Both the position numbers and the translations under genes were made by a program. The notes beneath the pieces are model-generated. The model was given only the letters and a program-made list of their open reading frames with translations, was not told the DNA's origin and ran no database searches. This document shows positions 36,182 through 63,349 of a stretch of DNA of 64,000 nucleotides, piece by piece. Position 1 is the first letter of the stretch, and the number at the start of each line of letters is the position of its first letter. The DNA comes from Trueperaceae bacterium (GTDB taxonomy: Bacteria; Deinococcota; Deinococci; Deinococcales; Trueperaceae): NCBI GenBank assembly GCA_011390675.1, contig JAABRX010000001.1:5368-69367 (forward strand), given 5' to 3'.

Positions 36182-36218
36182 GTTGTTCGTGTGGAACGGC
36201 GCGCACGCCGTGGACGGA

Positions 36219-38155: not shown

Positions 38156-38279
38156 GAATGGACCTCGTCGGCGTGGCCGGTTCGAACGGGACATGGCGCG
38201 CCGCGATCGGCGGTCGCGCGGGGAAGGGGACGCGCAGGACCCCGAGGAAGGGTCCTGCGCGTGGGACGAGCCGGGACGC

Positions 38280-41279: not shown

Positions 41280-41300
41280 GGTCGCACGCGCACGCCGACG

Positions 41301-41306
41301 TAGAGT
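41301..41306 (+). promoter_or_regulatory. -10-like TAGAGT, 8 nt upstream of the GGDEF-EAL ATG
   Basis: TAGAGT-gaaggtcc-ATG read directly. Confidence 0.3.
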
Positions 41307-41314
41307 GAAGGTCC

Positions 41315-44300
41315 ATGAGCGCTGCGCGCTTTCCATCGCGTGACCCCGACGCGGATCCTCTCGATCTGCGGGCCTGGATCGATCGCTTGCCGGTCGGCGC
41401 GGTGTGGACCGACGGTACGCGCCTGGTCGCCAACGCCCGGATCGAGGCCCTGATCGGCCGGCCGCGCGAGCGCGTGGCCACCTTGGACGACTGGTTCCGC
41501 GAGGTCTACGGCGACGAGGCCGAGCGGTACCGGGCGGACTACGAGGCCGATCGAGCGAAGGGTTTTCCGTTCCCCGTCCGGTCGCCGATCCGCCGGCCCG
41601 ACGGCGACGAGCGCGTCCTGGAGTACCGTTGCATCACCGACGAGGTGGGCGAGGTCTGGCTGATCGACGACCGCACCGCCGAGGTGGTCGCAGGCACGCT
41701 CGCGCGCACCCTGGACGGCGTGCTGCGGAAGGTGAGCGACCACGTGCCGGGCGTGCTCTACCAGTTCCTCGCGCGGCCCGACGGCACCTACGCGTTCCCG
41801 TTCGCGACCCAGGGCATCCGCGAGGTGTACGGCGTCGAGCCCGACGACGTGCTTGAGGACGCGAGCGCCGCGTTCGAGGCGCTCCATCCCGACGACCGGG
41901 CGCGCGTCGAGGCGACCATCGAGCGCTCGCGCGCCACGCTGTCCGTTTGGCGCGAGACGTACCGCGTGCGCCACCCGGAGCGCGGCGAGCGCTGGCTCCA
42001 CGGGGAAGCGACCCCTGAGGCACTCCCGGACGGCACGGTCTTGTGGCACGGATACATCAGCGACGTGACCGAGCTGCGTCAGGCGCAGGAGGCGCTCGTC
42101 GCGTCCGAGGCGTACCTTCAGGACGTCTTCGCCGCGACCGAGGCGGCCATGTTCGTGGTCGACGTCGAGCCCGACGGGACGTTCCGCTACGTAGGATCGA
42201 ACACCGCGCACGTGCGCGCGTCCGGGATCCCCACGGAGACCTTGGCCGGGTCCACGCCCTACGACGTGGTACCGCCCGACGCTGCCGAAGCGGTGGTGGC
42301 CCGGTACCGAGCCTGTGCGGACGCCGGGGAGCCCGTGACCTACCAGGAGGAGCTGCCGCTACCGGCGCCCGGCACGTGGTTCCGCACCAGCCTCGTCCCC
42401 GAGCGCGACGCCACCGGTCGTGTCCACCGGATCGTGGGCAGCGGCTTCGACATCACGGCCTCACGAAGCGCCGAGCTCGCCGTGCGCGAACGCGACGCGC
42501 TGCTGGAGCGCGCGCAGCGCGTCGGCCGGTTGGGGACCTGGGCCTACGACCCCGTCGATGGGGCCGCGAGTTGGTCGCCGGCGGTCGAGGAGTTGGTCGG
42601 GCCCCTTGGGGTCCTCGGCGTCGTCGATACGTTGCGCGAGCGGGTGGTCGAGGAAGACCGGGGCAGGGTCGAGACTGCGTGGGCCGAGGGGCTCGCCAAC
42701 GGCCGCTTCGACGTCACCTTCCGCGTGCGCACCGCCGACCATCCGCGCTACGTGCGGCTCGTCGGTGAGCGCGAGCGGACGGACGAGCCCGAGGCTCGGT
42801 TCGTCGGCACGCTGCAAGACGTCGACGAGGCGACCCGCCGCGAAGCGGAGGTGGCCCGCCTCGCGATGATCGTCGAGCAAGCGCCCAGCATCGTGATCTT
42901 GACGGGCCCGGACGGCACCATCGAGTACGTCAACCGGCGCTTCGAGGAGGCGACCGGCCATCGTGCCGACGACGTCGTCGACCGCCCGCTGGCGATGCTT
43001 GCGAGCAACGACGTGGACGCCGAGCGGCAGCTCCAGGCGATGTGGCCCGTGATCCTGGCTGGCGGCTCGTGGTCGGGGCGGCTCGAGCGTCGGCGCGCGG
43101 ACGGCAGCTGGTACCAAGAGCGCGCGACCTTCAGCCCGCTGTTCGATGCGGCGGGTCGCGTGAACCACGTGCTCAAGCTCTCCGAGGACGTCACCGAGCA
43201 GCAGCGCCTCGCCGACCGGGTCGAATACCTGTCGTCCTACGACCCGCTGACCGGCCTCGCGAACCGGGGGTTGCTCGAGGACCGCCTCGATGCAGCGATC
43301 GTCGCTGCCAAGCGCCACGGCGACCACGTGGCGGTGCTCCTGCTCGACCTCGACGCGTTCAAGACGGTCAACGACGGCTTGGGGCACCGCGCCGGCGACG
43401 CCTTGCTCGCCGAGGTCGCGACGCGCTTGCGCGTGCACGTGCGGGCGGACGACCTGGTCGCCCGCTTCGGTGGCGACGAGTTCGTCGTCTTGCTCGACCG
43501 GGTGAGCCGTCTCGACGACCTCGCGCCGGTGGTCGCGAAGCTGCGCGCGGGGCTCGAGGCGCCCTTGGAGGTGGACGGGCACCGCTTGTCGGCGTCGGCG
43601 TGCGTCGGCGTGGCGGTGTTCCCCGAGGACGCCGAGAGCGGCGAGGTGCTCCTGCGCTACGCCGACGCGGCGATGGAGCGCGCCAAGGAGCGCGGGCCCG
43701 GCAGCGTCGCGTACTACACCGATGCCCTGAGCTCCCGGCTCGAGGAGCGCGTGCGGCTCGAGGCCGCCATGCGGCTCGGGTTCGCGGCCGGCGAGTTCCG
43801 GCTCGTGTACCAGCCGCGCGTCGACATGGCCAGCCGCCGCGTGGTCAGCCTCGAGGCGCTGGCTCGCTGGCGCTCGCCGACGTTCGGCGACGTGCCGCCG
43901 GGCCGGTTCGTCGCGGTGGCCGAGTCCAGCGGCTTCATCCACGAGTTCGGCGCCTGGGTCACCCGCACCGCGGCCGCCCAGCTCGCCGCCTTCCGCGAGG
44001 CCGGACTCCCGATCGTGCCGATCGCGGTCAACCTCTCCGTGCGCCAGTTCCTCCGCGACGACGTCGTCGAGGTGGTCCAGCGCGCGCTCGAGGACGTCGA
44101 CGTGCCGCCCGGACTGTTCGAGGTGGAGATCACCGAGAGCACCGCCATGACCGACGTTGCCGACACGGTCGCCAAACTGCGCGCCTTCGAACGCCTTGGG
44201 GTGGCGGTGAGCATCGACGACTTCGGGACGTACCACTCGTCGCTCGGACGCCTCAAGCGCTTGGCCGTCAAGAGCATCAAGATCGATCGTGGCTTCGTCA

Positions 44301-44539
44301 TGGACCTGGGCGACGACCCGAGCGCAGCCCCGCACGATGCGGCGATCGTGCGCGCGATGATCGGGATCGGCGAGGCGCTGGGGCTCGAAGTGATCGCCGA
44401 GGGCGTCGAGACCGAGGCGCAGCGCGACTTCTTGTTGCGCAACGGGTGCCGGTTGGCGCAGGGCTTCCTGTTCGCGCGACCGGGCGAGGTCGAGCAGGTC
44501 GCGCAGTGGCTTCGCGCCGGGCGTCTGCCCGCTTCCTGA
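41315..44539 (+). CDS. Multi-PAS GGDEF-EAL protein (diguanylate cyclase/phosphodiesterase)
   Basis: 1074 aa with several PAS/PAC modules. I-site RADD five residues before GGDEF. EAL motifs (SLEALARW, EITES, DDFGTYHSS, KIDRGF, EGVETE, QGFLF). Confidence 0.9.
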   Translation: MSAARFPSRDPDADPLDLRAWIDRLPVGAVWTDGTRLVANARIEALIGRPRERVATLDDWFREVYGDEAERYRADYEADRAKGFPFPVRSPIRRPDGDERVLEYRCITDEVGEVWLIDDRTAEVVAGTLARTLDGVLRKVSDHVPGVLYQFLARPDGTYAFPFATQGIREVYGVEPDDVLEDASAAFEALHPDDRARVEATIERSRATLSVWRETYRVRHPERGERWLHGEATPEALPDGTVLWHGYISDVTELRQAQEALVASEAYLQDVFAATEAAMFVVDVEPDGTFRYVGSNTAHVRASGIPTETLAGSTPYDVVPPDAAEAVVARYRACADAGEPVTYQEELPLPAPGTWFRTSLVPERDATGRVHRIVGSGFDITASRSAELAVRERDALLERAQRVGRLGTWAYDPVDGAASWSPAVEELVGPLGVLGVVDTLRERVVEEDRGRVETAWAEGLANGRFDVTFRVRTADHPRYVRLVGERERTDEPEARFVGTLQDVDEATRREAEVARLAMIVEQAPSIVILTGPDGTIEYVNRRFEEATGHRADDVVDRPLAMLASNDVDAERQLQAMWPVILAGGSWSGRLERRRADGSWYQERATFSPLFDAAGRVNHVLKLSEDVTEQQRLADRVEYLSSYDPLTGLANRGLLEDRLDAAIVAAKRHGDHVAVLLLDLDAFKTVNDGLGHRAGDALLAEVATRLRVHVRADDLVARFGGDEFVVLLDRVSRLDDLAPVVAKLRAGLEAPLEVDGHRLSASACVGVAVFPEDAESGEVLLRYADAAMERAKERGPGSVAYYTDALSSRLEERVRLEAAMRLGFAAGEFRLVYQPRVDMASRRVVSLEALARWRSPTFGDVPPGRFVAVAESSGFIHEFGAWVTRTAAAQLAAFREAGLPIVPIAVNLSVRQFLRDDVVEVVQRALEDVDVPPGLFEVEITESTAMTDVADTVAKLRAFERLGVAVSIDDFGTYHSSLGRLKRLAVKSIKIDRGFVMDLGDDPSAAPHDAAIVRAMIGIGEALGLEVIAEGVETEAQRDFLLRNGCRLAQGFLFARPGEVEQVAQWLRAGRLPAS

Positions 44540-48095: not shown

Positions 48096-48096
48096 C

Positions 48097-49026
48097 TTGC
48101 TCGGCTACCTGCTGGGCCGCCTGGTCGGCACGGCGCCGGTCCTGTTCGGGGTGACGCTGCTCGTCTTCGCGATGACGTGGCTCACCCCGGGCGACCCGGT
48201 CGTCGCGCTGCTCGGCGAGACCGCCCAAGGCATCTCCGCCGAGGGCCGCGACGACCTGCGCCGCCAGCTCGGTCTGGACCGGCCCTGGCCGGTGCAGTAC
48301 GTCGAGTACGTCAGCGGTCTGGTGCGGGGCGACCTGGGCACCTCGATCCGGTCGCGGCGACCGGTGCTCGACGAGGTGCTCGACCGCTTGCCCGCCACCG
48401 CCGAGCTCGCGCTGGCGGGGCTGGCGATCGCCATCGTCGTCGGCGTCTCGCTAGGGGTCGCCGCGGCCGTGCGCAAGCGCACGTGGGTCGACGCGCTCGC
48501 GATCGCCGTCGCGCTCGTGGGCGTCTCGGTACCGGTCTTCTGGTCCGGGTTCCTGCTGATGCTCGTCTTCGCGCTCGACCTCGGCTGGTTGCCGGCCAGC
48601 GGCCGGGGCACGTGGCAGCACCTGGTGCTGCCGGCGCTGACGGTCGGCATCTCCTCGGCGGCCTTCATCGCGCGCATCACCCGCGGCGCCGTGCTCGAGA
48701 CGCTCGGTCAGGACTACGTGCGCACCGCCCGCGCGAAAGGGGTGGCCGCGCGCCGCGTGGTGGTGCGCCACGCGCTGCGCAACGCGCTGCTCCCGATCGT
48801 CACCGTGGTCGGCCTGCAGCTCGGCGGCCTGCTCGGCGGCGCGGTGCTGACCGAGACCGTGTTCGCCTGGCCCGGCGTCGGGCGCATGCTCGTCGACGCG
48901 ATCCTCGCGCGCGACCTGCCGCTGGTGCAGGGGAGCGTGCTCGTCGTCTCGCTCCTGTTCATCCTCGTCAACCTCGCCGTCGACCTGTCCTACGCGGCGA
49001 TCAACCCCAAGGTGCGCTATGGCTGA
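48097..49026 (+). CDS. ABC transporter permease (DppB-like)
   Basis: TTG start 1 nt after the SBP stop. Motif YVRTARAKGV typical of DppB/OppB. Confidence 0.85.
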   Translation: MLGYLLGRLVGTAPVLFGVTLLVFAMTWLTPGDPVVALLGETAQGISAEGRDDLRRQLGLDRPWPVQYVEYVSGLVRGDLGTSIRSRRPVLDEVLDRLPATAELALAGLAIAIVVGVSLGVAAAVRKRTWVDALAIAVALVGVSVPVFWSGFLLMLVFALDLGWLPASGRGTWQHLVLPALTVGISSAAFIARITRGAVLETLGQDYVRTARAKGVAARRVVVRHALRNALLPIVTVVGLQLGGLLGGAVLTETVFAWPGVGRMLVDAILARDLPLVQGSVLVVSLLFILVNLAVDLSYAAINPKVRYG

Positions 49027-49894
49027 CGCCGCCACCGCTGCGCCCGTCGGGCGCTGGCGCGCGTTCTGGACGGCGCCGGCCACCCGCCGCTTCCGGCGCA
49101 ACCCCGGCGCCTGGGTGGGCCTGGCGATCGTCGTGGGCCTGGTCGCCCTCGCCGTGTTCGCCCCCTGGATCGCGGACCGGGCGCCGGACGCGCAGAACCT
49201 GCGGATGCGGCTGCGTCCGCCGTCGCTCGAACACCCGTTCGGCACCGACGAGTTCGGCCGCAGCGTCCTCGCGCGCGTCGCCTACGGGGCGCGCGTCTCG
49301 CTGCTCACCGGCGTCGTGCCGGTGGCGCTGGCGCTGCTGCTCGGCAGCACGATCGGCCTGGTCGCCGGCTTCTTCCGCGGTCGCCTCGATAGCGCCCTCA
49401 TGCGCGTGATGGACGTGCTGCTCGCGTTCCCGTCGCTGCTGTTGGCGCTCGCCGTGGTGGGCACGCTGGGCCCCGGGTTGGTGAACGCGGTGATCGCCAT
49501 CGCGGTCGTCGACGTGCCGCAGTACGCGCGCTTGGTGCGCAGCGTGGTGCTCGGGACGCGCGAAGAGGAGTACGTGCAGGCCGCCCGCGCCCTGGGGGCC
49601 GGCAACGGCCGCCTGATGCTGCGGCACGTGCTCCCCAGCGCGGTCGGCCCCATCGTGGTGCAGGCGACGCTGGGGGTGGGCTTCGCGATCCTCGCGATCG
49701 CCGGGCTCTCGTTCCTGGGCCTAGGGGTCCAACCGCCGACCTCGGATTGGGGCGAGATGCTCGCGCGCGGGCGCCGCTTCCTCCCCGACGCCACCTGGCT
49801 GATGATCTTCCCGGGGCTCGCGGTCTCGCTCACGGTGCTCGGCTTCAACCTCTTGGGGGACGGTCTGCGCGACGCGCTCGATCCCAGGGGCTGA
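49019..49894 (+). CDS. ABC transporter permease (DppC-like)
   Basis: Motifs FGTDEFGRSVLARV and YVQAARALGA typical of DppC/OppC. Confidence 0.85.
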   Translation: MADAATAAPVGRWRAFWTAPATRRFRRNPGAWVGLAIVVGLVALAVFAPWIADRAPDAQNLRMRLRPPSLEHPFGTDEFGRSVLARVAYGARVSLLTGVVPVALALLLGSTIGLVAGFFRGRLDSALMRVMDVLLAFPSLLLALAVVGTLGPGLVNAVIAIAVVDVPQYARLVRSVVLGTREEEYVQAARALGAGNGRLMLRHVLPSAVGPIVVQATLGVGFAILAIAGLSFLGLGVQPPTSDWGEMLARGRRFLPDATWLMIFPGLAVSLTVLGFNLLGDGLRDALDPRG

Positions 49895-49899: not shown

Positions 49900-51339
49900 T
49901 CAGGCGACCGCGGTCGCCCGCCCCTCGCGATCGAGGTACCTCCGCAACGCCGCGAACACCACCGGGTCGATCCCGGTCCCCAGGTCGCGCTCGAGGATGG
50001 CGATCACCCGCGCCCGATCGAGCCGCTCGCGGTAGGGGCGTTCGGCCGACAGCGCCTCGAACTGGTCCGCGACCGCCAGGATCCGTGCTTCGAGCGGCAG
50101 CTCGGCGCCACCGACGCCGCGGTGGTACCCGCCGCCGTCGACGCGCTCGTGGTGCATCGCCGCGACCTCGGCGAGGTCGCGGAAGGGACCGACGCGCTCG
50201 AGGATCCGCAACGTGTGGTCGGGGTGGCGCCGCACCTCGACGAGCTCCTCGTCGGTCAGGCGCCCAGGCTTGTCGAGGATCGCGCTCGACACCCCGAGCT
50301 TGCCCAGGTCGTGCAGCAGCGCCGCGCGCCTCAGGCGCCGCTGGCCGGCCGCGTCGATGCCGAGCTCTTCGGCGATCCCGACCGTGTAGCGCGCCACCTC
50401 GGTGGAGTGGCGGTAGGTCCAGGGCGACTTGGCGTCGATCACGCCCGCGAACGCTTCGGCGACGCGGTCGAGCTGAGCCTCGTCGGAGCGGCGGACGCGG
50501 TCCTCCGGTTCGAGCGCGGCCACCCGTTCGCGCACCCGCTCGCCGGCGAGCGCCGGCCAGAAGTCCGGACGCCGCTGCGCCTTCAAGAAGGCGTCGACCA
50601 GCTGCGGGTCGAACCAGGTGCCGCGGCGCCGACGCGCCACGCGGCGGGCGGCGGCCGGCCCGTAGGCGCTGGCGAACACCTCGGTGGTCTGGGCCAGCTG
50701 CAGGATGCGGCCCAGGAGCGGGATGCCTTCGCCGTGCAGCCCGGCCGGTTGCCCGCGCCCGTCCCAGTGCTCGTCGAGCGTGCGGATCGCGTCGGCGGTG
50801 GCGTCCGCGAACCCGAGGTCGAGGGCGATCGAGGCGCCGCGCTCGCAGCGCAGCGCCATCAGCTCCTGGGTGCCGCCGTGGCGCCCGAGCGCCACCTCCG
50901 CGATGCGGCGGATCCGAGCGAGGCTCACCTCGCCGCTGCGGGTCGCGCGCACCACGAACCGGAAGGCATCGGCCAGGTTCGTCCAGCGCATCCGCTTGTG
51001 GAGCGCCTTGGCCGCGCGGTCGTCCGCCTGGAAGAGCTGCGCCATCTTCGACGCGTTCGACGAGCAACCGAGGTCCTTGAGCAGCAGCGCGTAGAACAGC
51101 GACGACAGCGTCGTGGTGGGGAGGTCGATCTCGGCCGCCACGCGCATGCCGATCAGGCAGGTGCGCAGCGCGTGCCCCTCGGGCATGCCCTCGGTGAGGT
51201 CGAGCGCGGTGCTGAGCGCGGCGACGACCTCGGACGTGCGCAGCGCCGCGCTCGGGTCGACCGCGGCGCCCAGGGCAACGGCGGTGGCCGTGGGGTTCGG
51301 TGCACCGGTCGGCGGGGCGGGGGCGATCGCTGAGGTCAC
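49900..51339 (-). CDS. Tandem HD-domain protein: degenerate N-terminal HD-GYP-like module plus C-terminal HD-GYP-type module
   Basis: N-terminal module has KD in place of HD (LLLKDLGCSS) and HWDGRGQP. C-terminal module has LLHDLGKLG and HHERVDGGGYH (GYH instead of GYP). Confidence 0.8.
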   Translation of the reverse strand: MTSAIAPAPPTGAPNPTATAVALGAAVDPSAALRTSEVVAALSTALDLTEGMPEGHALRTCLIGMRVAAEIDLPTTTLSSLFYALLLKDLGCSSNASKMAQLFQADDRAAKALHKRMRWTNLADAFRFVVRATRSGEVSLARIRRIAEVALGRHGGTQELMALRCERGASIALDLGFADATADAIRTLDEHWDGRGQPAGLHGEGIPLLGRILQLAQTTEVFASAYGPAAARRVARRRRGTWFDPQLVDAFLKAQRRPDFWPALAGERVRERVAALEPEDRVRRSDEAQLDRVAEAFAGVIDAKSPWTYRHSTEVARYTVGIAEELGIDAAGQRRLRRAALLHDLGKLGVSSAILDKPGRLTDEELVEVRRHPDHTLRILERVGPFRDLAEVAAMHHERVDGGGYHRGVGGAELPLEARILAVADQFEALSAERPYRERLDRARVIAILERDLGTGIDPVVFAALRRYLDREGRATAVA

Positions 51340-51345
51340 GCCGTC

Positions 51346-51351
51346 ACGCTA
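51346..51351 (-). promoter_or_regulatory. -10-like TAGCGT, 6 nt upstream of the HD-GYP GTG
   Basis: The minus strand reads TAGCGT-gacggc-GTG. Confidence 0.35.
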
Positions 51352-51374
51352 GCGGTCCGCCCCTTACGGCACCG

Positions 51375-54300
51375 TCACGCGGTCTCGTCGGCGCGGTACG
51401 TCCAGCCGGCGAGGTCGGACGCGGGCATGGGTCGCGCCAACAGGAAGCCTTGGCCCACGCGGCAGCCACGGGTGACGAGCGCGCGTCGCTGCGCGGGCTC
51501 CTCGATGCCTTCGGCGACGACCTCGAGGCCGAGGCCGGCGGCGAGCGCCAGCACGGCGTCGACCACCGCCGTGCCGCGGCTCGCGGCTTCGGTGGCGTCG
51601 GGGTCGTCGCCATGGTCGTCGAAGCCCAAGCCGCGCACGAACGAGCGGTCGATCTTGAGCACGTCCACGGGCAAGACCGCCAGGCGATGCAGCGACGAGT
51701 AGCCGGTGCCGAAGTCGTCCATGGCGACCCGGATGCCCGACGCCTGCAGCGCCGCGAGCGCCGCGGTGGCTTGGTGGCGCTCGTCCGCCATCACGCTCTC
51801 GGTGACCTCCAACTCCAGGTCCTGCGGCTCCAGCCCGTGCCGCGCGATGGCGTCGCGAACGCCCTGCTCGAAGTCGTCCGCCCGCAGCTGGTGGACGGAC
51901 ACGTTGACGCAGACGCGCGGCACCGCGAGCCCGGCCGCCCGCCAGGTGACGAGGTCGGCGCACGCCCGGTCCAGGACGAACGCGCCCAGCGTCGCGATCA
52001 GGCCCGCCTCCTCCGCGAGCGGGACGAACGTGCCCGGGGCGATGGGGCCCTGGCTCGGGTGGTCCCAGCGGGCGAGCGCTTCGACCCCCTCGAGGGCGCC
52101 GTCGGCGAGGCGGACGCGCGGTTGGTACGCGACCCACAAGCTCGCTTCGGCGCGCAGCGCGCCGCGGAGGTCCTCGGTCAGGGCGGCACGGGCGCGCATC
52201 CGGGCGTCGAGGTCGCGGGTGAAGTAGGCGACCGCGCCGCGCCCCTCGCGCTTGACGCGGTACATCGCCAGGTCGGCGTGGCGCATGAGCGTCGCGGCGT
52301 CGGTGGCGTCGTCCGGGGCGACGCTGACGCCCACCGAGCCGCCGACGCGCACCGCGCGGCCGGCCACGAGGACCTCTTGGCGCAGCACGTCGATCACCTT
52401 CTGGGCGACCTTGGCCGCCGAGTCCGCGTCCTGGAGGCCGGCCGCGACGACCGCGAACTCATCGCCTCCGAGGCGCGCGACCGTGTCCTCGTCGCGCAGC
52501 GCGTCGCGCAGACGCGTGGCCACCGTGACGAGGAGTTCATCGCCGGCGGCGTGCCCGAAGGCGTCGTTGACGCTCTTGAAGGCGTCCAGGTCGATGACCA
52601 GGAGCGCGGTGCGGGCCTCCGTGCGGCGGTCGCGCGCCAAGGCGCGTTCGAGCCGATCGTTGAGCAGCGTGCGGTTGGGCAGCCCGGTGAGCGGGTCGTG
52701 GTGCGCGAGGTGCGCGAGTTTGGTGCGTTCCTCGTTCAGGGCACGCTCGAGGGCTCGGCGCTGCAGGAGCACCGCCACCGTGCCGCCGAGCAGTTCGGCG
52801 CGCTCGAGCGATTCTTCGTCGAAGCCGTCCTCGTGCATGGCGTCGAGTTGCAGGAACCCGAGCAGGTCGCCGCCGGCGACGATCGGCACGGACAGCGTCG
52901 CCGCGAGCGGCGCTGCGTTGGGGTGGGTGTTGAAGCGCTTGGCGGTCTCGGGATCCATCAGCTCGCGCTCGGCGCGCAGGTCGACCCGCTCGACCCGGTC
53001 GAGTCGGCGCCGGGCGAACGACTCGGGTCCGAGCGCCACCTGGGTCAGGTCGCCGAGCGGCCGTGCATGCAGCGCTACGAACCGGAAGCGACCGTCCTCG
53101 CCGCGCGCCAGCACGCAGCCGGTGTCGGCGCCGGGGACGTGGGCGATCGCGTGGTGCAGGACCTGCTCGTGCACGTCGGCGTCGGGTGCCGCACCGAGCA
53201 CGTCGTGGGTGAGCGCCAAGAGGCTGCGGCGGAAGGCGACCTCGCGCTCGAGCGCGGCCCGTTCCCGGATCCGCTCGGTGACGTCGACGCTGCGGTAGAC
53301 CGCACCGTGCACCGCGCCCTCCGACCACAGCGGTTGGAAGGTGACGTCGACCCAGTACGGTGGGAGGCCCGCCGCGCGGGACTCGGGGCCGCGGACGGCA
53401 CGGACCTCGGCACCCGACAGTGCGGTGTCCAGGTCGCTATGGAACACCGGGTCGTCGATGACTCGGTCGATCTTGGCGCCGACGCGAAGCTCGTGCCCGA
53501 ACCGGTTCCGCACGCGCGTGGCGGCGGTCGGGTTCAGCGCCGCGACCTGCCGTTCGGCGTCGACGAGCACGACCGCGTCGTCACTGAGCTCGAGCATGGT
53601 GCGCAGCTCGGACTCCGAGCGGCGCAGTGCTTCGGTCAGGTGCGTGCGCTCGGTGACGTCGTGGAGGAAGCCGTGCCACACCATCGTGCCGTCCTCGCGC
53701 TGCGAAGGGACCGCACGACCGTGCAGGACACGCACGCCGTGGGCGTGGTCGATGGCCCGGAACTCGTGGTCCCAGCGCTGCAGCGAGCGCGCCGACGCGA
53801 CGAGGCTCGCCTCGAAGGCGGGCCGGTCCTGGTCGAGGATCCGATCGAGCGCCGGGTTCGCGTTGGACCGGAGCGGCGCGATGTCGATGCCGAGCAGCTC
53901 GCCGAAGCGGGGGCTCGCGTACGCGAACCGGCGGGCGCCGTCCGGCGCGCGCTCGAAGCGGAAGAGGCCGCCCGGGACCTCGGCGGCGAGGTGGCGCAGG
54001 TCGCGCAGGGCGTCGTCGCGTTCGCGGGCGGTCTGGGTCCGCTCGACGTCCCCGAGCACGACCTGGGCTGCGGTTCCGAAGGCGACCGCCGCGTCCTCGG
54101 GCCACGGGCCGGGCACCGGGCGCTCGAAGGCGACGAAGCCGGTCGTGCGGTAGTCGGTGCGCATGGGTGCGTACAGGAGCGCGGCGCTCCCTGCTGCGAG
54201 GCGGGCGGCGACGTGGGCTCGGGGTGCGCCGTCTGGGTCCGCGGTCCACGCGTTCAGGTCGTCCACGACGATCGCTTCGTTGGCGACGAGCCGGTTCCAC

Positions 54301-54599
54301 CAGGTGCCCAGCATCTCGACGTTCTCGATGAGCGGCGGTGCGTCCGAACCGTCGGGGTGCTGGCGCCACTCGTACGTGCGCGACAACGTCCAGCCGTCCT
54401 CGCCGAGCGTCATGATGCTCGCCACGTGGGCGCTGGCCGCCTCCGCCAGTTCCCCGAGGGCCGCAGCGACGCCGCGTTCGATCGCTTCGGCGGGTCGTTC
54501 CGTCACCCGACGCAGCAGCTGCAGCGTGCGCGGTGCGATGAGGTCCGCGCCGCGGCCGCGGCGATCGCGGTCGCCCGAGTCGTGCCGGTCGGCTGCCAT
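51375..54599 (-). CDS. GAF-PAS-GGDEF-EAL protein, tandem paralog B
   Basis: 1074 aa. I-site RDED five residues before GGDEF. EAL motifs GVEALARW, EVTES, DDFGTGYSSL, KIDRSF, EGIEE, QGFLL. Confidence 0.9.
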   Translation of the reverse strand: MAADRHDSGDRDRRGRGADLIAPRTLQLLRRVTERPAEAIERGVAAALGELAEAASAHVASIMTLGEDGWTLSRTYEWRQHPDGSDAPPLIENVEMLGTWWNRLVANEAIVVDDLNAWTADPDGAPRAHVAARLAAGSAALLYAPMRTDYRTTGFVAFERPVPGPWPEDAAVAFGTAAQVVLGDVERTQTARERDDALRDLRHLAAEVPGGLFRFERAPDGARRFAYASPRFGELLGIDIAPLRSNANPALDRILDQDRPAFEASLVASARSLQRWDHEFRAIDHAHGVRVLHGRAVPSQREDGTMVWHGFLHDVTERTHLTEALRRSESELRTMLELSDDAVVLVDAERQVAALNPTAATRVRNRFGHELRVGAKIDRVIDDPVFHSDLDTALSGAEVRAVRGPESRAAGLPPYWVDVTFQPLWSEGAVHGAVYRSVDVTERIRERAALEREVAFRRSLLALTHDVLGAAPDADVHEQVLHHAIAHVPGADTGCVLARGEDGRFRFVALHARPLGDLTQVALGPESFARRRLDRVERVDLRAERELMDPETAKRFNTHPNAAPLAATLSVPIVAGGDLLGFLQLDAMHEDGFDEESLERAELLGGTVAVLLQRRALERALNEERTKLAHLAHHDPLTGLPNRTLLNDRLERALARDRRTEARTALLVIDLDAFKSVNDAFGHAAGDELLVTVATRLRDALRDEDTVARLGGDEFAVVAAGLQDADSAAKVAQKVIDVLRQEVLVAGRAVRVGGSVGVSVAPDDATDAATLMRHADLAMYRVKREGRGAVAYFTRDLDARMRARAALTEDLRGALRAEASLWVAYQPRVRLADGALEGVEALARWDHPSQGPIAPGTFVPLAEEAGLIATLGAFVLDRACADLVTWRAAGLAVPRVCVNVSVHQLRADDFEQGVRDAIARHGLEPQDLELEVTESVMADERHQATAALAALQASGIRVAMDDFGTGYSSLHRLAVLPVDVLKIDRSFVRGLGFDDHGDDPDATEAASRGTAVVDAVLALAAGLGLEVVAEGIEEPAQRRALVTRGCRVGQGFLLARPMPASDLAGWTYRADETA

Positions 54600-54676
54600 G
54601 GCGACAGCCTACGGGACTCGGGCATGCGGTCGTGGCGAAACGGTCGGGTACGCGCGGGGCACGCGGTTGGGCGAGG

Positions 54677-57466
54677 TCAGGACGCGAATCGCTCGGCGTG
54701 CCAGTGGATCAGGTCGGCCTCGGCCATCGGACGCCCGAACAGGTATCCCTGGGCCACCAGGCATCCACGCTCGATCAGGGCGTCGCGTTGCGCCTCGGTC
54801 TCGACCCCTTCGGCGATGGCGTGGAGGCCCAACCCCGAGGCCAACGCGAGCACGCCGTCGACGAGGGCCGCGTCGCGCCGGCCGGCCCCGAGGCGCTCCA
54901 CGAAGCTGCGGTCGATCTTGAGCACGTCCACGGGAAGGACGGCCAGGCGATGCAGCGACGAGTAGCCGGTGCCGAAGTCGTCGATCGCCACCCGCGCCCC
55001 CGCCGCCTGCAGGCACCGCAACGGGTCGAGCAGGTCGGCGTGTTCGCCGGCCATCACGCTCTCGGTGACCTCGAGGTCGAGGTCGCCCGGTCCGAGCCCG
55101 TAGCGCCCCGTGATGCGAGCGAGCCGCGCTTCGAGATCGCCGGCGCGCAGCTCCTGCGGGGCGACGTTGAGCGCGAGCCGGCCGCTCGTCCCCATGTCGG
55201 CCGCGCGCATGCGCGCGAAGCCGGCGCAGGCGAGGTCGAAGACGTGGTCGCTGAGCGCTTGCACCAAGCCGGACTCCTCGGCGAGGGGCACGAAGGTCGC
55301 CGGCGGCACGGCACCGAGCGTCGGATGGTTCCAACGCGCGAGTGCCTCGACGCCGACGCAACCACCGCCATCGAGCCGCACCTGCGGCTGGAACGCGACT
55401 CGGATCCCGGTGCCGTCGCGGAGCGCGGAGCGCAGGTCCTCGGTCAGCTGCGCCCGTTCGCGCATCCGTGCGTCGAGATCGGGCGTGAAGTACGCGACCG
55501 CGCCTCGCCCGGCGCGCTTGGCGCGGTACATCGCGAGGTCGGCGTTGGCGAGGAGCTCGCCGGCGTCGGTGCCGTCGGCCGGAGCTACCGACACGCCGAT
55601 CGACGCGCCGACGTACACGTCGCGGCCGGCGATCGCGATCGGTTGGTGCAGGGTGCTCAGGACCTTGCGCGCGACGTTGGCGGCGCTGCCGACGGTCTCG
55701 AGCCCGGCCGCCACGACCGCGAACTCGTCGCCGCCGAGCCGCGCGACCGTGTCTGCGCCGCGCAGCACGTCGTCGAGGCGGTGCGCGAGGGCGGCGAGGA
55801 GTTCGTCGCCCGCGGCGTGCCCGAAGGTGTCGTTCACGCTCTTGAAGCCGTCGAGGTCGACGACCATGAGCGCGGTCGCGTGGCCGGTGCGGGCGTCGCG
55901 CATGAGGGCGCGATCGAGGCGGTCGGCGAGCAGGACCCGGTTGGGCAGGCCGGTCAGCGGATCGTGGTGCGCCAGATGGGCGAGCTTGGCCCGCTCCTCG
56001 AGCAAACCGCGCTCGAGGTCGAGGCGCTGGACGAGGGCGCCGATCAAGTCGCCGAGCAGGCGCCCCGCCTCGAGCGAGTCGTCACCGAAGGCCCCCGCGT
56101 CCGAGAAGCTGTTCAACTGCAGGTAGGCGGCGGTTCGCCCCTCGACCACGACCGGGACCGAGAGGGTAGCGGCGATCGCGTCGGTCGGGCCGGAATCCTC
56201 GAACGCCCTGCGCACCGCAGGGTCGTCGAGCACGTGCGGGAGCAGGCGCGGGAGGCGCGTCACGTCCGCAGCGGCGGGCTCCGAGATCGCGTCGGTTGGG
56301 AAGCGCAGCGGTCCGAGCGCCTCGAGATCGAACCCGACGGCGGCGACGAACCGGTACCGCCCGTCGGGGTCGAGCTGCAACACGCTGCCGGCCTCGGCGC
56401 CCGGCACGTGGCGCACCGCCTGTTCGAGCACCTGTTGCAGGGGCTCGGCGTCGTGGTGGTGGACGAGCGCGGCGTGGGCGAGCGCCAGGAGCCCCTGGCG
56501 CAACCGGTTGCCACGCTCGAGCGAGCGCCGCGCCCGCACCTGCTCCGTGATGTCGACGCTGTGGTACACGGCGCCGGTTACATCGCCGGCGTCGTCGCGC
56601 ACGGGGCTGATCGTGACCTCGACCCAGTAGTCCGGGACCGTCGGCTCCCGGTGCTCGGGCCCCCACAGCTCGCGTACCACTTCGCCGGCCAGCGCGCGGC
56701 GCAGGTCGGCGTCGAAGTAGGCCGCCTCGATCCGCTGGCCGATCACGAGCTCCACGCCGTAGTTCTGGCGCGAGCGTTCGGCCGCCACCGGGTTGAAGGC
56801 CACGAGGCGGCGGCGGCGGTCGAACAGCACGATGGTGGCGCTCGCGTACTCGAGCATGACGTCGAAGCGTTGGCGCGTCGCCCGCTCGCTCGACGAGCGG
56901 GCCAGCGCGATGCCGATCAGGTGGCCGGTCAGCCGCAGCATCTGGCGCACCGAGGGGCTCCAGTCGCGCTCGCGCCGCACCGCGACGAACCCGACGAAGC
57001 CCGTCCAGCGTCCGCCGCTGCGCAGCGGGACCGCGAGCAGCGAGCGCACCCCGAGCTCCTCGAGCACCGGCGTCTCGGGGTGGTGTTCGGGGTCGAGGGC
57101 TGCGACGCTCGGGAGCACCACCGCCTCGCCGCGCTCGAACGCGGGCATCCAGCGGACGATCAGGTCGATCGGGACGGCCTGGAGCTTCTCCATCTGAGGC
57201 TCGACGCCCGGGGCGCACCACTCGTGGGTGTTCCGCACCGTCGTGCCGTCGGCCGAGCGCTGGAACGTGTAGGCACGGTCGGCGTCGGCGGCCGGTCCGA
57301 GCTCGCTCAACAGGTCGTCGATCGCCGCGTCGAGTTCGTCGGCTGGGTGCTCTTCGAGCCGCATCGCGAGGTGGGCGATCAGTTCGAGCGCCTTCTCGTC
57401 GCGAGGTTCGTGCGGTTCGTCTTCGGTCGTCACGTCCGGAGCGTACCGGAGGTGGGCGGGGTCCAT
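54677..57466 (-). CDS. GAF-PAS-GGDEF-EAL protein, tandem paralog A
   Basis: 929 aa. I-site RGAD five residues before GGDEF. EAL motifs GVEALARW, EVTES, DDFGTGYSSL, KIDRSF, EGVETE, QGYLF. Confidence 0.9.
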   Translation of the reverse strand: MDPAHLRYAPDVTTEDEPHEPRDEKALELIAHLAMRLEEHPADELDAAIDDLLSELGPAADADRAYTFQRSADGTTVRNTHEWCAPGVEPQMEKLQAVPIDLIVRWMPAFERGEAVVLPSVAALDPEHHPETPVLEELGVRSLLAVPLRSGGRWTGFVGFVAVRRERDWSPSVRQMLRLTGHLIGIALARSSSERATRQRFDVMLEYASATIVLFDRRRRLVAFNPVAAERSRQNYGVELVIGQRIEAAYFDADLRRALAGEVVRELWGPEHREPTVPDYWVEVTISPVRDDAGDVTGAVYHSVDITEQVRARRSLERGNRLRQGLLALAHAALVHHHDAEPLQQVLEQAVRHVPGAEAGSVLQLDPDGRYRFVAAVGFDLEALGPLRFPTDAISEPAAADVTRLPRLLPHVLDDPAVRRAFEDSGPTDAIAATLSVPVVVEGRTAAYLQLNSFSDAGAFGDDSLEAGRLLGDLIGALVQRLDLERGLLEERAKLAHLAHHDPLTGLPNRVLLADRLDRALMRDARTGHATALMVVDLDGFKSVNDTFGHAAGDELLAALAHRLDDVLRGADTVARLGGDEFAVVAAGLETVGSAANVARKVLSTLHQPIAIAGRDVYVGASIGVSVAPADGTDAGELLANADLAMYRAKRAGRGAVAYFTPDLDARMRERAQLTEDLRSALRDGTGIRVAFQPQVRLDGGGCVGVEALARWNHPTLGAVPPATFVPLAEESGLVQALSDHVFDLACAGFARMRAADMGTSGRLALNVAPQELRAGDLEARLARITGRYGLGPGDLDLEVTESVMAGEHADLLDPLRCLQAAGARVAIDDFGTGYSSLHRLAVLPVDVLKIDRSFVERLGAGRRDAALVDGVLALASGLGLHAIAEGVETEAQRDALIERGCLVAQGYLFGRPMAEADLIHWHAERFAS

Positions 57467-57514
57467 CGCGCTTCGCCGCTGCGGTGCGTCAGCGCGCCTG
57501 GCTTCGGGCCGGCA

Positions 57515-59041
57515 TCAGCGGCGCCCCTCGTACGAGAGCAACAGGCCGGCGAAGGCGGCAGAGAACAGCACGACGGCTGCGGCGAACGGCGCCGCCTCGG
57601 CGAGCATCCCTTCGTTCGTGCGCGAGAACACGCGGACCGCGAGCGTCGTGTATCCGGTGGGCGCGAGCAGGAAGGTCATCGGCAGCTCCTTCATCGCCAC
57701 CATCAGCACCATCGCGCCGGAGGCGGCGAGGCTGCGCCCGATCAAGCGAAAGGTGGTCTGCACGAAGGCGGCGGAGCGCGAGCGACCCAGCGAGCGGGCC
57801 GCTTCCTCGACGCGCGGGCTGATCTGCAGCAGCGAGCTGCGGATGGGGCCGATGGCGAGGGCGAGGAACGAGATCACGTAGGCGGCGACCACGAGCGGGA
57901 TCGTCTGGTAGAGGCCCGGCGCGGATCGGAGCGCGAACATGACGAGCGCGAGCGCCAGCGCGACCGGCGGGATCGCGTACCCGACGTAGGCGAGCCGCTC
58001 GACCGCGCGTCCGGCCGCGCTCCGAACGCGCGCGCCCATCACCGCGATCGGCAGCGCCAACGCGGTCGCCACCAGCGCGGCGGGCAGGGCGAGCGCCGCC
58101 GTGCGCCCGAAGGTCGCCGCGACCGCCTGCCACGTCTCGAAGCTGGGGGGCGCGAGCACCATCCAGGCGCCGAGCGCGAGGACCGGCAGTCCGAGGGCGG
58201 CGCCGAGCACGAGCGCCACCCACGTCCACGCCAGCGGCGCCCGCGCGCCCAGCCTCGACGTCGGGGCGCGTCGGGCGGCACCGCCCCCCACGCGGGCGTA
58301 GCGGCGCCGCCCGAGCAGCCGCGCCTCGAGCAGGACGATCGAGAGCGTCATCGCGAGCAGCATGAGCGCCAACCAGGCGGCGTAGGTCCGGTCGAAGGCC
58401 GACGTGTACTGGGTGTAGATGGCGTAGCTGAAGGTCTCGTAACGCATGAGCGCCACGACGCCGAAGTCGCCGAGCACGTAGAGCGCCACGACCAGCCAGC
58501 CCGCCAGCAGCGCCGGTCGCATCTGCGGCAGCACGACCGTGCGCAACGTGGCGGCGGGCGACTGCCCCAGGCTCCGCGCGCTCTCCTCGAGCGCCGGGTC
58601 GAGCCCCAACAGGGCGTTGCGGACGTTCAGGAACAGGTAGGGGAAGGTGTAGAGCGACAGGGCCAGCGCGGCGCCGAAGTACCCGGAGGGGCGCGGCACG
58701 CTCCAGCCCGCGAGCTGGGCGAGGAGCCCTTGGTGGCCGCCCAGGCCGAGAAGCGCGTACGCCATGACGTACCCAGGGATCGCGAGCGGGACGACCGAGA
58801 GCCAGGTGATCACGTTCCGACCGCGCAGGTCGGTGCGCACGACCAGCCAGGCGAGCGGGACCGCCAGCAGCGTCGTGAGCGCCAGGACGCCACCGACGAG
58901 CGCCAGGGTGTTGGCGAACAGCGCCCACGTGCGCGGCCGGAACACCAAGCGCGCGACCGTGGCCGGGTCGGCCTCGGTCGCGCGCAGGATCAGGTACGCG
59001 ATGGGGAGCAGGGTCGCCGCGCCCGCGATCAGCGCGGGCAC
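57515..59041 (-). CDS. Fe(III) ABC transporter permease (two-module, FbpB-like)
   Basis: 508-aa polytopic ORF with two EAA-type loops (EESARSLGQSPAATLRTVVLP, EEAARSLGRSRSAAFVQTTF). The true start may lie upstream. Confidence 0.8.
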   Translation of the reverse strand: MPALIAGAATLLPIAYLILRATEADPATVARLVFRPRTWALFANTLALVGGVLALTTLLAVPLAWLVVRTDLRGRNVITWLSVVPLAIPGYVMAYALLGLGGHQGLLAQLAGWSVPRPSGYFGAALALSLYTFPYLFLNVRNALLGLDPALEESARSLGQSPAATLRTVVLPQMRPALLAGWLVVALYVLGDFGVVALMRYETFSYAIYTQYTSAFDRTYAAWLALMLLAMTLSIVLLEARLLGRRRYARVGGGAARRAPTSRLGARAPLAWTWVALVLGAALGLPVLALGAWMVLAPPSFETWQAVAATFGRTAALALPAALVATALALPIAVMGARVRSAAGRAVERLAYVGYAIPPVALALALVMFALRSAPGLYQTIPLVVAAYVISFLALAIGPIRSSLLQISPRVEEAARSLGRSRSAAFVQTTFRLIGRSLAASGAMVLMVAMKELPMTFLLAPTGYTTLAVRVFSRTNEGMLAEAAPFAAAVVLFSAAFAGLLLSYEGRR

Positions 59042-59100
59042 GGCGACGTACCACGGGACGCGCCGGATGCCGCGGCGCGCGCGGGCCAGCGCGGCGGCGG

Positions 59101-60081
59101 TCAGAGGAGGCCGACCTCCCGCAGCAGGTCGAGGGTGCCGTCGAGGTCGTCGAGGGTGTCGAGGTCGACGTCGGGGCTGGCCTCGACCAGGCGTTCGAGG
59201 CTCTCGAGGTTGGCGTTGGGGGCGACGGCGGTGGTCACGGGGTACTCGAAGACCTCGTTGGTGAAGTAGCTTTGCGCATCGTCGGAGAGCAGGAACGCCA
59301 CGAAGCGCTCGGCTGCCTCCGGCTGGCTGCTCGTGTCGAGGACGCCTGCTCCGGCCACGTTCACCAGGTTACCCACGTCGCCGTCCGCGAAGAAGGCCTG
59401 GGCGACGGGGTAGCTCGGGTCGTTCGCGAGGAAGCGCAGCAGGTAGTAGTTGTTCACCAGCGCGACGTCGACCTCACCGGCCGCGATGGCCTCGACTTGG
59501 GTGGTGTTGTTCGAGTACGCGCGCACGCCGTTCGCCTGCATCCCGCGCAGCCAGTCGCGGGTAGCGTCCTCGCCGTGCACGACGCGCATGGCGGTGACGA
59601 AGGCCTGGAAGCTGCCGTTGGTCGGCGCCCACGAGACGCGGCCGCGCCACTCGGGGGCGGTGAGCTCGAACACGCTGGTCGGGAGCTCGGCGACGCGGTC
59701 CGGGCCGTACGCGAACACCCGCGCGCGGCCGCTGGTCGCGACCCACGTCTGGCTGGCGCCGGAGTAGATGCCCGGGAGCTCGGCGGTGAGCGCGTCGGGG
59801 ACGGCGCGCAGGCGGCCGGCCTGCGCGAGTGCGCCCAGGGCGCCCGCGTCCTGACCCCAGTAGACGTCGGCGGGGCTGACCGCCCCTTCCTCGAGGATCA
59901 GCACGGCCAGCTGAGCGGTGTCGCCGTAGCGCACGGCGACCTCGATGCCGGTCTCGGCGGTGAACTGGGCGACGAGGGGGGCGACGAGCGCCTCGCCGCG
60001 TCCGGAGTAGACGGTCAGCGTCTGCGCCGAGGCGGCGCCGAGGACGAGGGCGGCGAGGAGGGCGAGCAGGCGGTGGCGCAT
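59101..60081 (-). CDS. Fe(III) ABC transporter substrate-binding protein (FbpA/AfuA-like)
   Basis: AGGAG SD. Signal peptide ends GAASAQT. LTVYSGRGE start, with YWGQDAG and NNYYL motifs typical of iron SBPs. Confidence 0.8.
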   Translation of the reverse strand: MRHRLLALLAALVLGAASAQTLTVYSGRGEALVAPLVAQFTAETGIEVAVRYGDTAQLAVLILEEGAVSPADVYWGQDAGALGALAQAGRLRAVPDALTAELPGIYSGASQTWVATSGRARVFAYGPDRVAELPTSVFELTAPEWRGRVSWAPTNGSFQAFVTAMRVVHGEDATRDWLRGMQANGVRAYSNNTTQVEAIAAGEVDVALVNNYYLLRFLANDPSYPVAQAFFADGDVGNLVNVAGAGVLDTSSQPEAAERFVAFLLSDDAQSYFTNEVFEYPVTTAVAPNANLESLERLVEASPDVDLDTLDDLDGTLDLLREVGLL

Positions 60082-60198
60082 GGGGGACTCCTTGGGCGCG
60101 GGCGCGGGCGCGGTGCGCCCGGGGATTGGAGCGAGAATACCCGAGTGATCAGGTCGGGAATCTAGGGACGAAATTACCGCGGCGTGGAGGCGCCGTCA

Positions 60199-60223
60199 AT
60201 ACCCGAGTCGCGGACTCGGGTAT
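60199..60223. promoter_or_regulatory. 25-bp perfect palindrome ATACCCGAGTC-GCG-GACTCGGGTAT (candidate operator) in the fbpA/ICMT divergent region
   Basis: Read directly. The half-site AATACCCGAGT recurs at 60136-60146. Confidence 0.5.
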
Positions 60224-62050: not shown

Positions 62051-63349
62051 ATGACCTCCACCGACCCCGTCGTGCGCCACGGACTCGCCCGCGTCGACCA
62101 CACCCTCGAGGTGCCGATCGACCGCTCCGAACCGCACGGCGGCGCCACGCGCGTGTTCGCCCGCGAGGTCTGGGCGGTCGGCGCGGATCGCGCGGCGCTC
62201 CCGGTGCTGCTCTTCCTCCAGGGCGGTCCGGGCGGGGCTGCCCCGCGACCGCGCGTCAAAGACGGTTGGCTCGGCGCGGCGCTCGAGCGCCACCGGGTGG
62301 TGCTCCTCGACCAGCGCGGCACCGGCCGCAGCGACCCCATCGACGTCGCCTCCCCCTGGACGGACGCCGCCGGCCGGCCGCTCGACGACGCCGCGCTCGC
62401 CGCGCGCCTCGCCCACTACCGCGCGGACGCGATCGTCGCCGACGCCGAGGACCTGCGCCGCGCGCTCGTGGGCGACGCCGGCCGCTGGACGCTGCTCGGT
62501 CAGTCGTACGGCGGTTTCCTGGCCTTCACCTATTTATCAAATCACCCCGACGCGCTCGAGGGGGTGCTCGTCGCTGGCGGTGTCCCGTCGCTCGACCGGC
62601 CCGCCCTCGACGTGTACCGGACCACCTACCGCGCGCTGCTCGGCAAGCTGCGCGCCTTCGAGCGCTGCTACCCCGGCGACCTCGCGCGCTGGCGCGCCCT
62701 GGCCGAGCACGTGGCGGAGCGCGACGACCGGTCCGCGGACGGGCGCCGAGCGACGCCGCTGCAGGTCGCCTACCTCGGCAACCTGCTCGGCTCGGGCTCC
62801 GGCCCCGACGTCCTCCACGAGCTGCTCGAGCGCGCGCTGGTGGGGGAGGGGGAGCGCGCCGCGCTCTCGACCCCGGGGCGCCGCGCGCTCGAGAACGCGC
62901 AGCCCTTCGGCGCCAGCCCGATCTACGCCGCGCTCCACGAGTCGATCTACGCCCAGGGGGCGCCGACCGCATGGGCTGCGGCGCGTGCGCACGCCGAGGT
63001 GGCGGCCGTATGGCCCGACGAGCTGCCGCGCGCCCACGCCGAGGTGGCGCTGCCCGAGCTCTTCGACGAGGTCGCCGAGTTGCGGCCGCTGCGGGGCGCC
63101 GCCGAGATCCTCGCGCGCCAGGCCGACTGGCCGGCGCTCTACGACCCGGCCGTGCTCGAGCGCAACCGAGTTCCGGTCGCTGCCGTCGCGTACGCCGAGG
63201 ACCTCTACGTGCCGCTCGCCTTCAGCCAGGAGACCGCCGCGCGGGTCCCCAACGTGCGCCTGTGGGTGACCAACGAGTTCGAACACGACGGGTTGCGGTC
63301 CCACGGGGAACGCGTGTTCCGCCGCTTGCAGGAGCTGCGGGTCGGATGA
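62051..63349 (+). CDS. Prolyl aminopeptidase-like alpha/beta hydrolase (S33)
   Basis: Motifs [19 protein letters not shown] and nucleophile GQSYGG. Confidence 0.75.

Follow-up and report, generated by a model that had tools for sequence, protein, structure and literature searches.

The closest described counterparts of the five-gene array analyzed here, which lies at positions 49,900 to 60,081 of a window of 64,000 nucleotides (73% G+C) from contig JAABRX010000001.1 of a Trueperaceae bacterium, are ferric-ion importers of the FbpABC/HitABC/SfuABC type, promoters with IscR type-1 operators, GGDEF-EAL proteins with PAS/GAF sensor domains, the phosphodiesterase V-cGAP3 of Vibrio cholerae and the leaderless genes of Deinococcus. 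The iscR promoters carry two type-1 sites and are repressed by [2Fe-2S]-IscR (PMC6599224). V-cGAP3 (VCA0931) linearizes 3'3'-cyclic GMP-AMP (3'3'-cGAMP) and also hydrolyzes cyclic di-GMP (c-di-GMP) (PMC4423081; PMC8177086). Leaderless expression from a -10 region adjacent to the open reading frame (ORF), with strict spacing, has been experimentally shown in Deinococcus (PMC12340547; PMC4007540), and 60% of the mRNAs of D. deserti are leaderless (PMC4007540, de Groot et al. 2014). Our analysis indicates that the array is quite probably a mosaic of two independent cassettes, an fbpAB importer pair and a trio of cyclic-dinucleotide signaling genes, which stand side by side in a variable slot. The array consists of the following genes.

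59101..60081, minus strand: fbpA, periplasmic Fe(III)-binding protein (PDB 7w3w, E=4e-113; Thermus thermophilus FbpA 3wae/4elo, E=1e-79)
57515..59041, minus strand: fbpB, fused two-domain iron ABC permease (Pfam BPD_transp_1 twice; PDB 9j4r 'Iron ABC transporter permease', E=1e-135)
54677..57433, minus strand: GGDEF-EAL A, domain order GAF-PAS-GAF-GGDEF-EAL (start revised from 57466 to GTG 57433)
51375..54599, minus strand: GGDEF-EAL B, domain order GAF/PAS-GAF-GGDEF-EAL, a paralog of A (54% identity over 750 aa) with intact motifs
49900..51339, minus strand: V-cGAP3-like tandem HD-GYP phosphodiesterase (two HD_5 stretches; PDB 5z7c, E=9e-111, residues 29-469)

These five ORFs follow one another in series and all have coding-type G+C content at third codon positions. 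The gene order and coordinates of the preliminary description (with A at 54677-57466) were borne out, and its gaps of 59, 48, 77 and 35 nt agree with the annotated coordinates; the second gap, however, becomes 81 nt once the start of A is revised. L081, an independent NCBI assembly of a relative, reads ACG at the upstream ATG of A, and the conserved block stops at GTG 57433, so that A most likely starts there. The frame of fbpB is 57515-59041, with an uncertain start codon (the call in L081 is 13 codons longer); a 521-aa ORF on the minus strand (57489-59054), which overlaps fbpB in another frame, is an artefact of high G+C. The same five-gene order is found in L081 (87% nucleotide identity), and contigs of four sediment metagenomes bridge the junctions fbpB/A (56933-57608), A/B (53991-54971) and B/HD-GYP (51175-51659); the array is therefore not an assembly artefact. 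Exact-protein look-ups for the window FbpA and GGDEF-EAL A gave no match, and when the PLSDB plasmids were searched by megablast with the array, they matched it only in short GGDEF/EAL fragments.

The slot that holds the array is bordered by a PEMT/ICMT-like methyltransferase gene on one side and by a convergent oppABC-like operon on the other, within a shared backbone of the order DAO - PEMT <-> slot -> <- oppC-oppB-oppA. In the window the HD-GYP and oppC stop codons are convergent and 5 nt apart. Close Trueperaceae relatives carry fbpAB alone, GGDEF-EAL gene(s) alone, or both at this position, as listed here by locus with the percentage identity of DAO to that of the window.

Window (DAO reference): fbpAB with A, B and HD-GYP
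L081 (DAO 94%): fbpAB with A, B, HD-GYP and a lipoprotein gene
L210 (DAO 92%): fbpAB with A and a lipoprotein gene
L206 (DAO 94%): no fbpAB; A and B
L208/L209 (DAO 84%): no fbpAB; A and B
L207 (DAO 87%): no fbpAB; A only, and a lipoprotein gene
L002 (DAO 70%): fbpAB, no signaling genes; the fbpB and oppC stops are 9 nt apart
L003: fbpAB, no signaling genes

At the loci that lack fbpAB, the fbpA promoter and its associated boxes (see below) are gone too, and the GGDEF-EAL genes stand 60-95 nt from PEMT. A remnant, GGAGTCCC, which resembles the fbpA ribosome-binding site, is left ahead of GGDEF-EAL A in L206 and suggests that fbpAB has been deleted there. Orthologs of the HD-GYP gene (81% and 65% identity) stand solo in unrelated contexts in L082 and L084. 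A survey of 80 other FbpA loci from many phyla (1.21 Mb) placed a GGDEF, EAL or HD-GYP gene near FbpA in three of them, and none was both downstream and co-directional. The pattern of presence and absence in the slot, together with the lack of association at these 80 loci, argues that fbpAB and the signaling genes are independent cassettes. All five genes of the array are under purifying selection, as evidenced by ratios of nonsynonymous to synonymous substitution (dN/dS) against L081 of 0.07-0.29 (fbpA 0.11, fbpB 0.07, A 0.23, B 0.29, HD-GYP 0.17), with similar dS values (0.22-0.38); the dS values against L081 are alike for the block and for the backbone genes.

The lipoprotein gene in some of these slots is an ORF of about 255-268 aa with no Pfam match, located on the minus strand at 11179-11985 in L081, 4162-4929 in L207 and 11775-12545 in L210, and absent from the window, L002 and L003. 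It precedes oppC in L081 and L207, and comes directly after A in L207 and in L210, whose contig stops short of any oppC.

Each of the three signaling genes has its own -10-like element immediately before the start codon, as follows.

57440..57445, minus strand: TACGCT, 6 nt before GTG 57433 of A; GGTAnnCTC...CGTG is invariant in the window, L081, L206, L207 and L208
54606..54611, minus strand: TAGGCT, 6 nt before ATG 54599 of B; TAGGCT/TACGCT/TACCCT-N6-ATG is found in L081, L206 and L208
51346..51351, minus strand: TAGCGT, 6 nt before GTG 51339 of the HD-GYP gene; kept in L081 and in the solo orthologs of L082 and L084

TAnnnT occurs 74 times on the two strands of the window, and 11 of these occurrences sit a short distance, 5-8 nt and mostly 6, ahead of a coding-like ORF, an event with a chance of about 0.002 per start codon. 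All three genes of the trio are among the 11; the other starts so preceded include those at 9824, 29342, 32327, 41315, 60281 and 62051. The trio boxes are kept in every relative, those with diverged flanks included. In having TAnnnT 6 nt from ATG or GTG without a Shine-Dalgarno sequence, at the trio and at eight other genes, the window resembles the leaderless mode of Deinococcus, although the experiments were done in Deinococcus only and the Trueperaceae case is argued from sequence and conservation. Each trio gene would be transcribed mainly as its own leaderless mRNA from its TAnnnT box, as is usual in the phylum. The TAnnnT signature is also useful for start-codon correction in this organism.

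The region upstream of fbpA contains the following elements.

60171..60199, minus strand: fbpA promoter TTGACG-N17-TAATTT; downstream of it come a leader of about 85 nt and the ribosome-binding site GGAG
60199..60223, no strand assigned: IscR type-1-like box 1, a perfect 25-bp palindrome (ATACCCGAGT-N5-ACTCGGGTAT) that abuts the -35 hexamer; also in L081 and L210
60137..60161, no strand assigned: IscR type-1-like box 2, just 3' of the -10 hexamer, across the expected transcription start

The -35 hexamer TTGACG and the TA...T of the -10 hexamer are invariant across five Trueperaceae loci. A search for TTGACn-N16-18-TAnnnT found three sites in the window against 0.1 expected, of which the fbpA site is the sole one on the minus strand of the array; this search superseded a generic sigma-70 scan, which had found nothing in the array and had missed the conserved fbpA promoter too. 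Matches to the 25-bp palindrome number two in the window against 0.01 expected, and the position of box 2 is kept in the window, L081, L002 and L003 and is weaker in L001 and L210. The palindrome fits the IscR type-1 consensus ATASYYGACTRWWWYAGTCRRSTAT (PMC6599224) at 18 of 25 positions, the mismatches being confined to the spacer or to the symmetric C/G positions 9 and 17; the consensus is that of E. coli. With the IscR type-1 operators of iscR, nfuA, erpA and tpx in E. coli and P. aeruginosa, the window boxes share the 25-bp palindromic form, the ATA...TAT ends and the CCCGA/TCGGG arms, and the palindrome is very similar to the footprinted P. aeruginosa tpx site AAACCCGAGGTTTTCGCTCGGGTAA. 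As at the iscR promoters (PMC6599224), two sites flank or overlap the promoter. Unlike these operators, the window boxes precede a ferric-ion importer and not an iron-sulfur (Fe-S) assembly gene, and their central spacer is rich in G+C. The palindrome was also compared with the consensus sequences of Fur and DtxR boxes, and both of these readings were rejected on sequence.

An exact-pattern scan for the palindrome in metagenomes returned more than 120 loci with G+C contents from 31% to 75%. The 150 ORFs beside these palindromes included NifU (5), Fe-S_biosyn (5), Rrf2 (2) and Redoxin/AhpC (2); the counts of NifU, Fe-S_biosyn and Rrf2 are far over background, though most of the 150 neighbors are unrelated. 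A tblastn search with the Rrf2 protein of L084, a Trueperaceae locus, placed an Rrf2 gene next to the palindrome in 2 of 120 motif loci. It is likely that a repressor of the Rrf2/IscR type acts at the fbpA boxes. As side observations, the pattern in the metagenome loci (L086-L205) reads ATWCCCGAS-N7-CTCGGGTWT; it recurs in seven loci of about 62% G+C, where an Endonuclease_1 gene and an unknown ORF of 155 aa flank it, and in L199 it lies immediately 3' of a GGDEF-like gene.

We propose the following explanation for the array. The first cassette would be fbpAB, from which fbpC has been lost at this position, with a sigma-70-like promoter, a leader and a Shine-Dalgarno sequence, bracketed by the IscR type-1-like palindromes. 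An Rrf2 repressor loaded with an Fe-S cluster would shut fbpAB when clusters are plentiful and release it under iron or oxidative stress, and an ATPase encoded elsewhere would power the importer. The second cassette would comprise the paralogous genes A and B, with their GAF/PAS sensor regions, plus the V-cGAP3-like phosphodiesterase. The adjacency of the two would stem from recent strain-specific gene gain and loss at the slot and would not mark a conserved functional unit. Where a strain has both cassettes, read-through from the fbpA promoter may contribute a component that responds to iron; that it superimposes Fe-S status on the leaderless promoters of the trio is a tentative proposal, and we think it improbable.

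Several observations weigh against the two-cassette explanation. Between fbpB and the trio lies neither a terminator nor a strong hairpin, so that read-through is physically plausible, and the -10-like boxes of the trio have no recognisable -35 partners. That the trio starts are leaderless and that the genes are not co-transcribed is deduced from DNA sequence, and the sequencing runs that carry the locus are all DNA metagenomes, with no RNA run among them. The remnant in L206 also suggests that the combined arrangement is ancestral in the subclade and that fbpAB was deleted later, in which case the linkage of fbpAB with the signaling genes may be one of some duration. The assignment to IscR is one of resemblance (18 of 25 positions of the E. 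coli consensus), a tblastn search with the L084 protein found no Rrf2 gene in the window, and many of the metagenome palindromes adjoin unrelated genes.

The preliminary description had read the array in another way, with iron uptake and c-di-GMP genes transcriptionally linked. In its strongest form, fbpA to HD-GYP would be a single iron-regulated operon from which the c-di-GMP enzymes are made together with the iron importer, and this we consider unlikely. The genes are indeed co-directional and separated by short gaps, with no terminator-like site or stable hairpin among them; the only sigma-70-like promoter on the strand lies before fbpA and has boxes of the iron/Fe-S type; and L081 keeps the gene order, with similar dS in all five genes. 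A rationale is also at hand in the Fe or Mn cofactors that HD-GYP enzymes use (PMC8177086). The claim that the array has no terminators is true of the minus strand, but it is uninformative in this genome: terminator-like sites are at or below the level of shuffled sequence in each segment scanned (4 vs 3.8, 7 vs 5.5, 0 vs 1.5 and 1 vs 2.1 in segments of positions 1-60700), and the intergenic folds of the array are unremarkable (z from 0 to 1.4). An independent promoter at each gene had been named in advance as a finding that would speak against linkage, and at the level of sequence a conserved TAnnnT-N6-start signal stands before every signaling gene. The two parts also vary independently, with close relatives that hold GGDEF-EAL genes without fbpAB or its promoter and others that hold fbpAB alone, and the 80 other FbpA loci show no wider association. 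What stands of the proposed iron link is that the fbpA promoter looks responsive to iron or Fe-S status, with its two IscR type-1-like boxes; linkage of the signaling genes to it as one unit is poorly supported.

The importer pair itself compares closely with FbpABC/HitABC/SfuABC systems. Its binding protein and its fused permease of the 2x6-TM type are close full-length homologs of solved proteins, in the order fbpA-fbpB. The tyrosine pair at FbpA residues 212-213 aligns with the YY of 7w3w and of 3wae/4elo, and the NNYY motif (residues 210-213) stands opposite NNYY and NHYY in the solved structures. The nearest FbpA loci are metagenome-assembled genomes of Trueperaceae (70-81% identity). Unlike these importers, the window fbpAB has no cognate fbpC. 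The ATPase gene (ABC_tran plus TOBE_2) comes after fbpB in L001, the Trueperaceae outgroup, in loci of Halomonas, Vibrio, Geobacteraceae and Actinomycetota and in most other fbpB-bearing loci, whereas it is absent in the window, L081, L002 and L003. A tblastn search with FbpC found no ABC ATPase anywhere in the window (no match at E<1e-3). The 64 kb thus hold three ABC importers without an ATPase gene, namely FbpAB, an Opp/Dpp-like system (46620-49894) and a CUT1-type system (about 37037-39617, in the region 36085-39617). Since the dN/dS values of fbpAB are low, the likeliest source of ATP hydrolysis would be a shared ATPase whose gene lies elsewhere. The Opp-like operon of L084 is likewise without ATPase genes, and shared ATPases may be the rule in the family of this organism.

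In the signaling genes A and B the motifs for making c-di-GMP and those for hydrolyzing it are all intact. The sequence around the active site reads RGAD-TVARL-GGDEF in A and RDED-TVARL-GGDEF in B, with the RxxD I-site five residues before GGDEF; the Asn and Asp of guanine specificity are intact (NDxFGHAAGD in both). The EAL signature is whole in both proteins (EAL, Asn, ExTE, DDFGTGYSS, KIDRSF, EG[VI]E and QG), and in B about 20 extra residues are inserted behind KIDRSF. The window GGDEF-EAL genes share both catalytic motif sets and the RxxD site with PAS/GAF proteins of the DibA, DosP and PdeR type, which are their best NCBIfam models, but they are not equivalogs of any named enzyme (they score 424-466 bits, and the cut-offs are at least 980). 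A PDB search with the sensor half of A, made for a clue to its ligand, gave only a weak GAF match.

The last gene of the array aligns with V-cGAP3 (VCA0931, 5z7c) over its whole length. As in that enzyme, the N-domain is degenerate, with LLLKD.GCSSNA (KD in place of HD) and EHW.G.G.P, so that GQP (G-x-P) stands for GYP, and the C-domain keeps the metal ligands H..HD..H..HH..D (RHST, LLHDLGK, HPDH, MHHERVDG and VAD). The window protein differs from V-cGAP3 in that the C-domain triad is GYH and not GYP, and its context is unrelated to the Vibrio VSP/DncV context. The GYH triad is the norm of the family, because 98 of the best 120 homologs carry GYH in any form (93 as G-Y-H-R); KD is present in the N-domain of 102. 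Published results on the effects of GYP mutations conflict (PMC8177086 vs PMC4423081). The preliminary description counted this gene among the c-di-GMP genes, a label that is too narrow because its closest characterized homolog, V-cGAP3, cleaves both dinucleotides; the predicted substrate is c-di-GMP and/or 3'3'-cGAMP. The V-cGAP3-type family is very widespread, with more than 7,800 homologs at E<1e-20, many of them about 55% identical across phyla and mostly standing alone; it has mostly GYH over GYP, so that the motif in its name is the exception.

The full-length match to '3'3'-cGAMP-specific phosphodiesterase 3' (5z7c) and the degradation of 3'3'-cGAMP by VCA0931 (PMC4423081) could also be taken to mean that the trio is a 3'3'-cGAMP module, CBASS-like or with a Hypr-GGDEF, and not a c-di-GMP module. 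We regard this as very unlikely: VCA0931 also hydrolyzes c-di-GMP (PMC4423081, PMC8177086), the window ORFs that were scanned showed no CD-NTase/DncV-like domain and no CBASS effector domain, and the size and mostly solitary occurrence of the tandem HD-GYP family argue against it as well. Hypr GGDEFs differ at the specificity-Asp position. All three GGDEFs of the window have the canonical Asp nine residues after the Asn (NDxxGHxxGD), as GTP-specific cyclases do, and the Hypr-GGDEF (cGAMP synthase) reading was rejected on this residue.

The local excess of cyclic-dinucleotide genes in the preliminary description is real: five in 64 kb, against three in the 1.21 Mb around the 80 FbpA loci. Their summed length was also correctly given, at 3009+3225+1440+3225+2790 = 13,689 bp or 21.4% of 64,000, and tblastn found no sixth GGDEF/EAL/HD-GYP gene within the 64-kb window. 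A literature search for a Truepera c-di-GMP gene census returned nothing usable. The two further signaling genes and the replication gene of the window are as follows.

41315..44539, plus strand: third GGDEF-EAL gene, domain order PAS x4-GGDEF-EAL; this gene and the methyltransferase gene next to it (40557-41336) make up a second insertion when compared with L002
15250..18258, minus strand: PAS-PAS-GAF-GAF-HD-GYP gene; its HD and GYP motifs are canonical, and a DtxR-family regulator gene is convergent with it
1232-2920, plus strand: Rep3-family replication initiator (Rep3_N plus Rep3_C)

L002 is collinear with the window at 38-64 kb, without the trio and without the GGDEF-EAL gene 41315-44539 and its methyltransferase neighbor; at 16673-18660 of L002 a Na/Ca exchanger gene abuts a Zn-peptidase gene where the window has 40557-44539. 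Four of the five signaling genes are lineage-specific additions, because they are absent from the backbone shared with L002, and the local enrichment results from recent insertions. It is hardly credible that the array is a chimera of the assembly, or that a foreign mobile island stands beside fbpB. In favor of such a reading, L002 and L003 lack the block, and what they lack falls exactly between two convergent stops; the junction also gains a lipoprotein gene in L081, L207 and L210. Against it, the independent assembly and the contigs of the four metagenomes cross the fbpB/A and internal junctions, G+C is uniform (0.72-0.74) in block and flanks, no flanking direct or inverted repeats exist (a repeat search showed only the A/B paralogy), the ORFs scanned showed neither an integrase nor a transposase domain, and block and backbone have similar dS against L081.

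The window probably belongs to a plasmid-like secondary replicon, because of the Rep3 initiator gene and the size of the source contig (73,014 bp). A promoter-like site, TTGACA-N18-TATGCT, lies within the Rep3 ORF at 1232-1261, so that its true start is probably further downstream. The preliminary description also stated that the window holds no effector or obvious output system; no PilZ was seen in the ORFs scanned, and an Rfam scan at gathering thresholds found no riboswitch or other family, but a cluster of AlgX/AlgI(MBOAT)/AlgF-like genes is present at 6105-9259 and could be a c-di-GMP output. This cluster, on the minus strand, comprises AlgX (SGNH), MBOAT (AlgI-like) and AlgF-like genes for polysaccharide O-acetylation and is adjoined by secretory-lipase-like ORFs (3611-6108). 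Among the other genes, the one at 40557-41336 encodes an S-adenosylmethionine methyltransferase and is divergent from GGDEF-EAL 41315-44539, and an alpha/beta-hydrolase gene (62051-63349) is likewise missing in L002. A DNA-repair pair on the plus strand (9770-13722) encodes LigA, an NAD-dependent DNA ligase, and then a PolX-type polymerase (Pol beta thumb plus PHP). A DtxR/IdeR-family repressor gene (about 14330-15002, plus strand; Fe_dep_repress, Fe_dep_repr_C and FeoA-like domains) lies beside the PAS/GAF-HD-GYP gene, a second metal/cyclic-dinucleotide adjacency in the window.

All components of the array are known families, and the array is probably an ordinary, recently shuffled neighborhood and not a dedicated iron/c-di-GMP operon. 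It carries a caution for the phylum: since many genes in Deinococcota start at a -10 box directly before the ORF, a tightly packed, co-directional row of genes with no terminators is no sign of an operon there. The fbpAB pair, which lacks an ATPase gene and is nonetheless under purifying selection, may be of use to specialists, as may the double operator and the prevalence of GYH in the widespread V-cGAP3-type family. If read-through from the fbpA promoter does occur in strains with both cassettes, it would amount to a recent, strain-specific rewiring of cyclic-dinucleotide signaling to iron status through gene gain and loss at a single slot. If an IscR-type repressor does act at the fbpA boxes, fbpAB would be de-repressed when Fe-S clusters are scarce, and the conserved IscR-type double operator on a ferric-ion importer of Trueperaceae makes fbpAB a candidate member of an Fe-S-status regulon outside the Proteobacteria.

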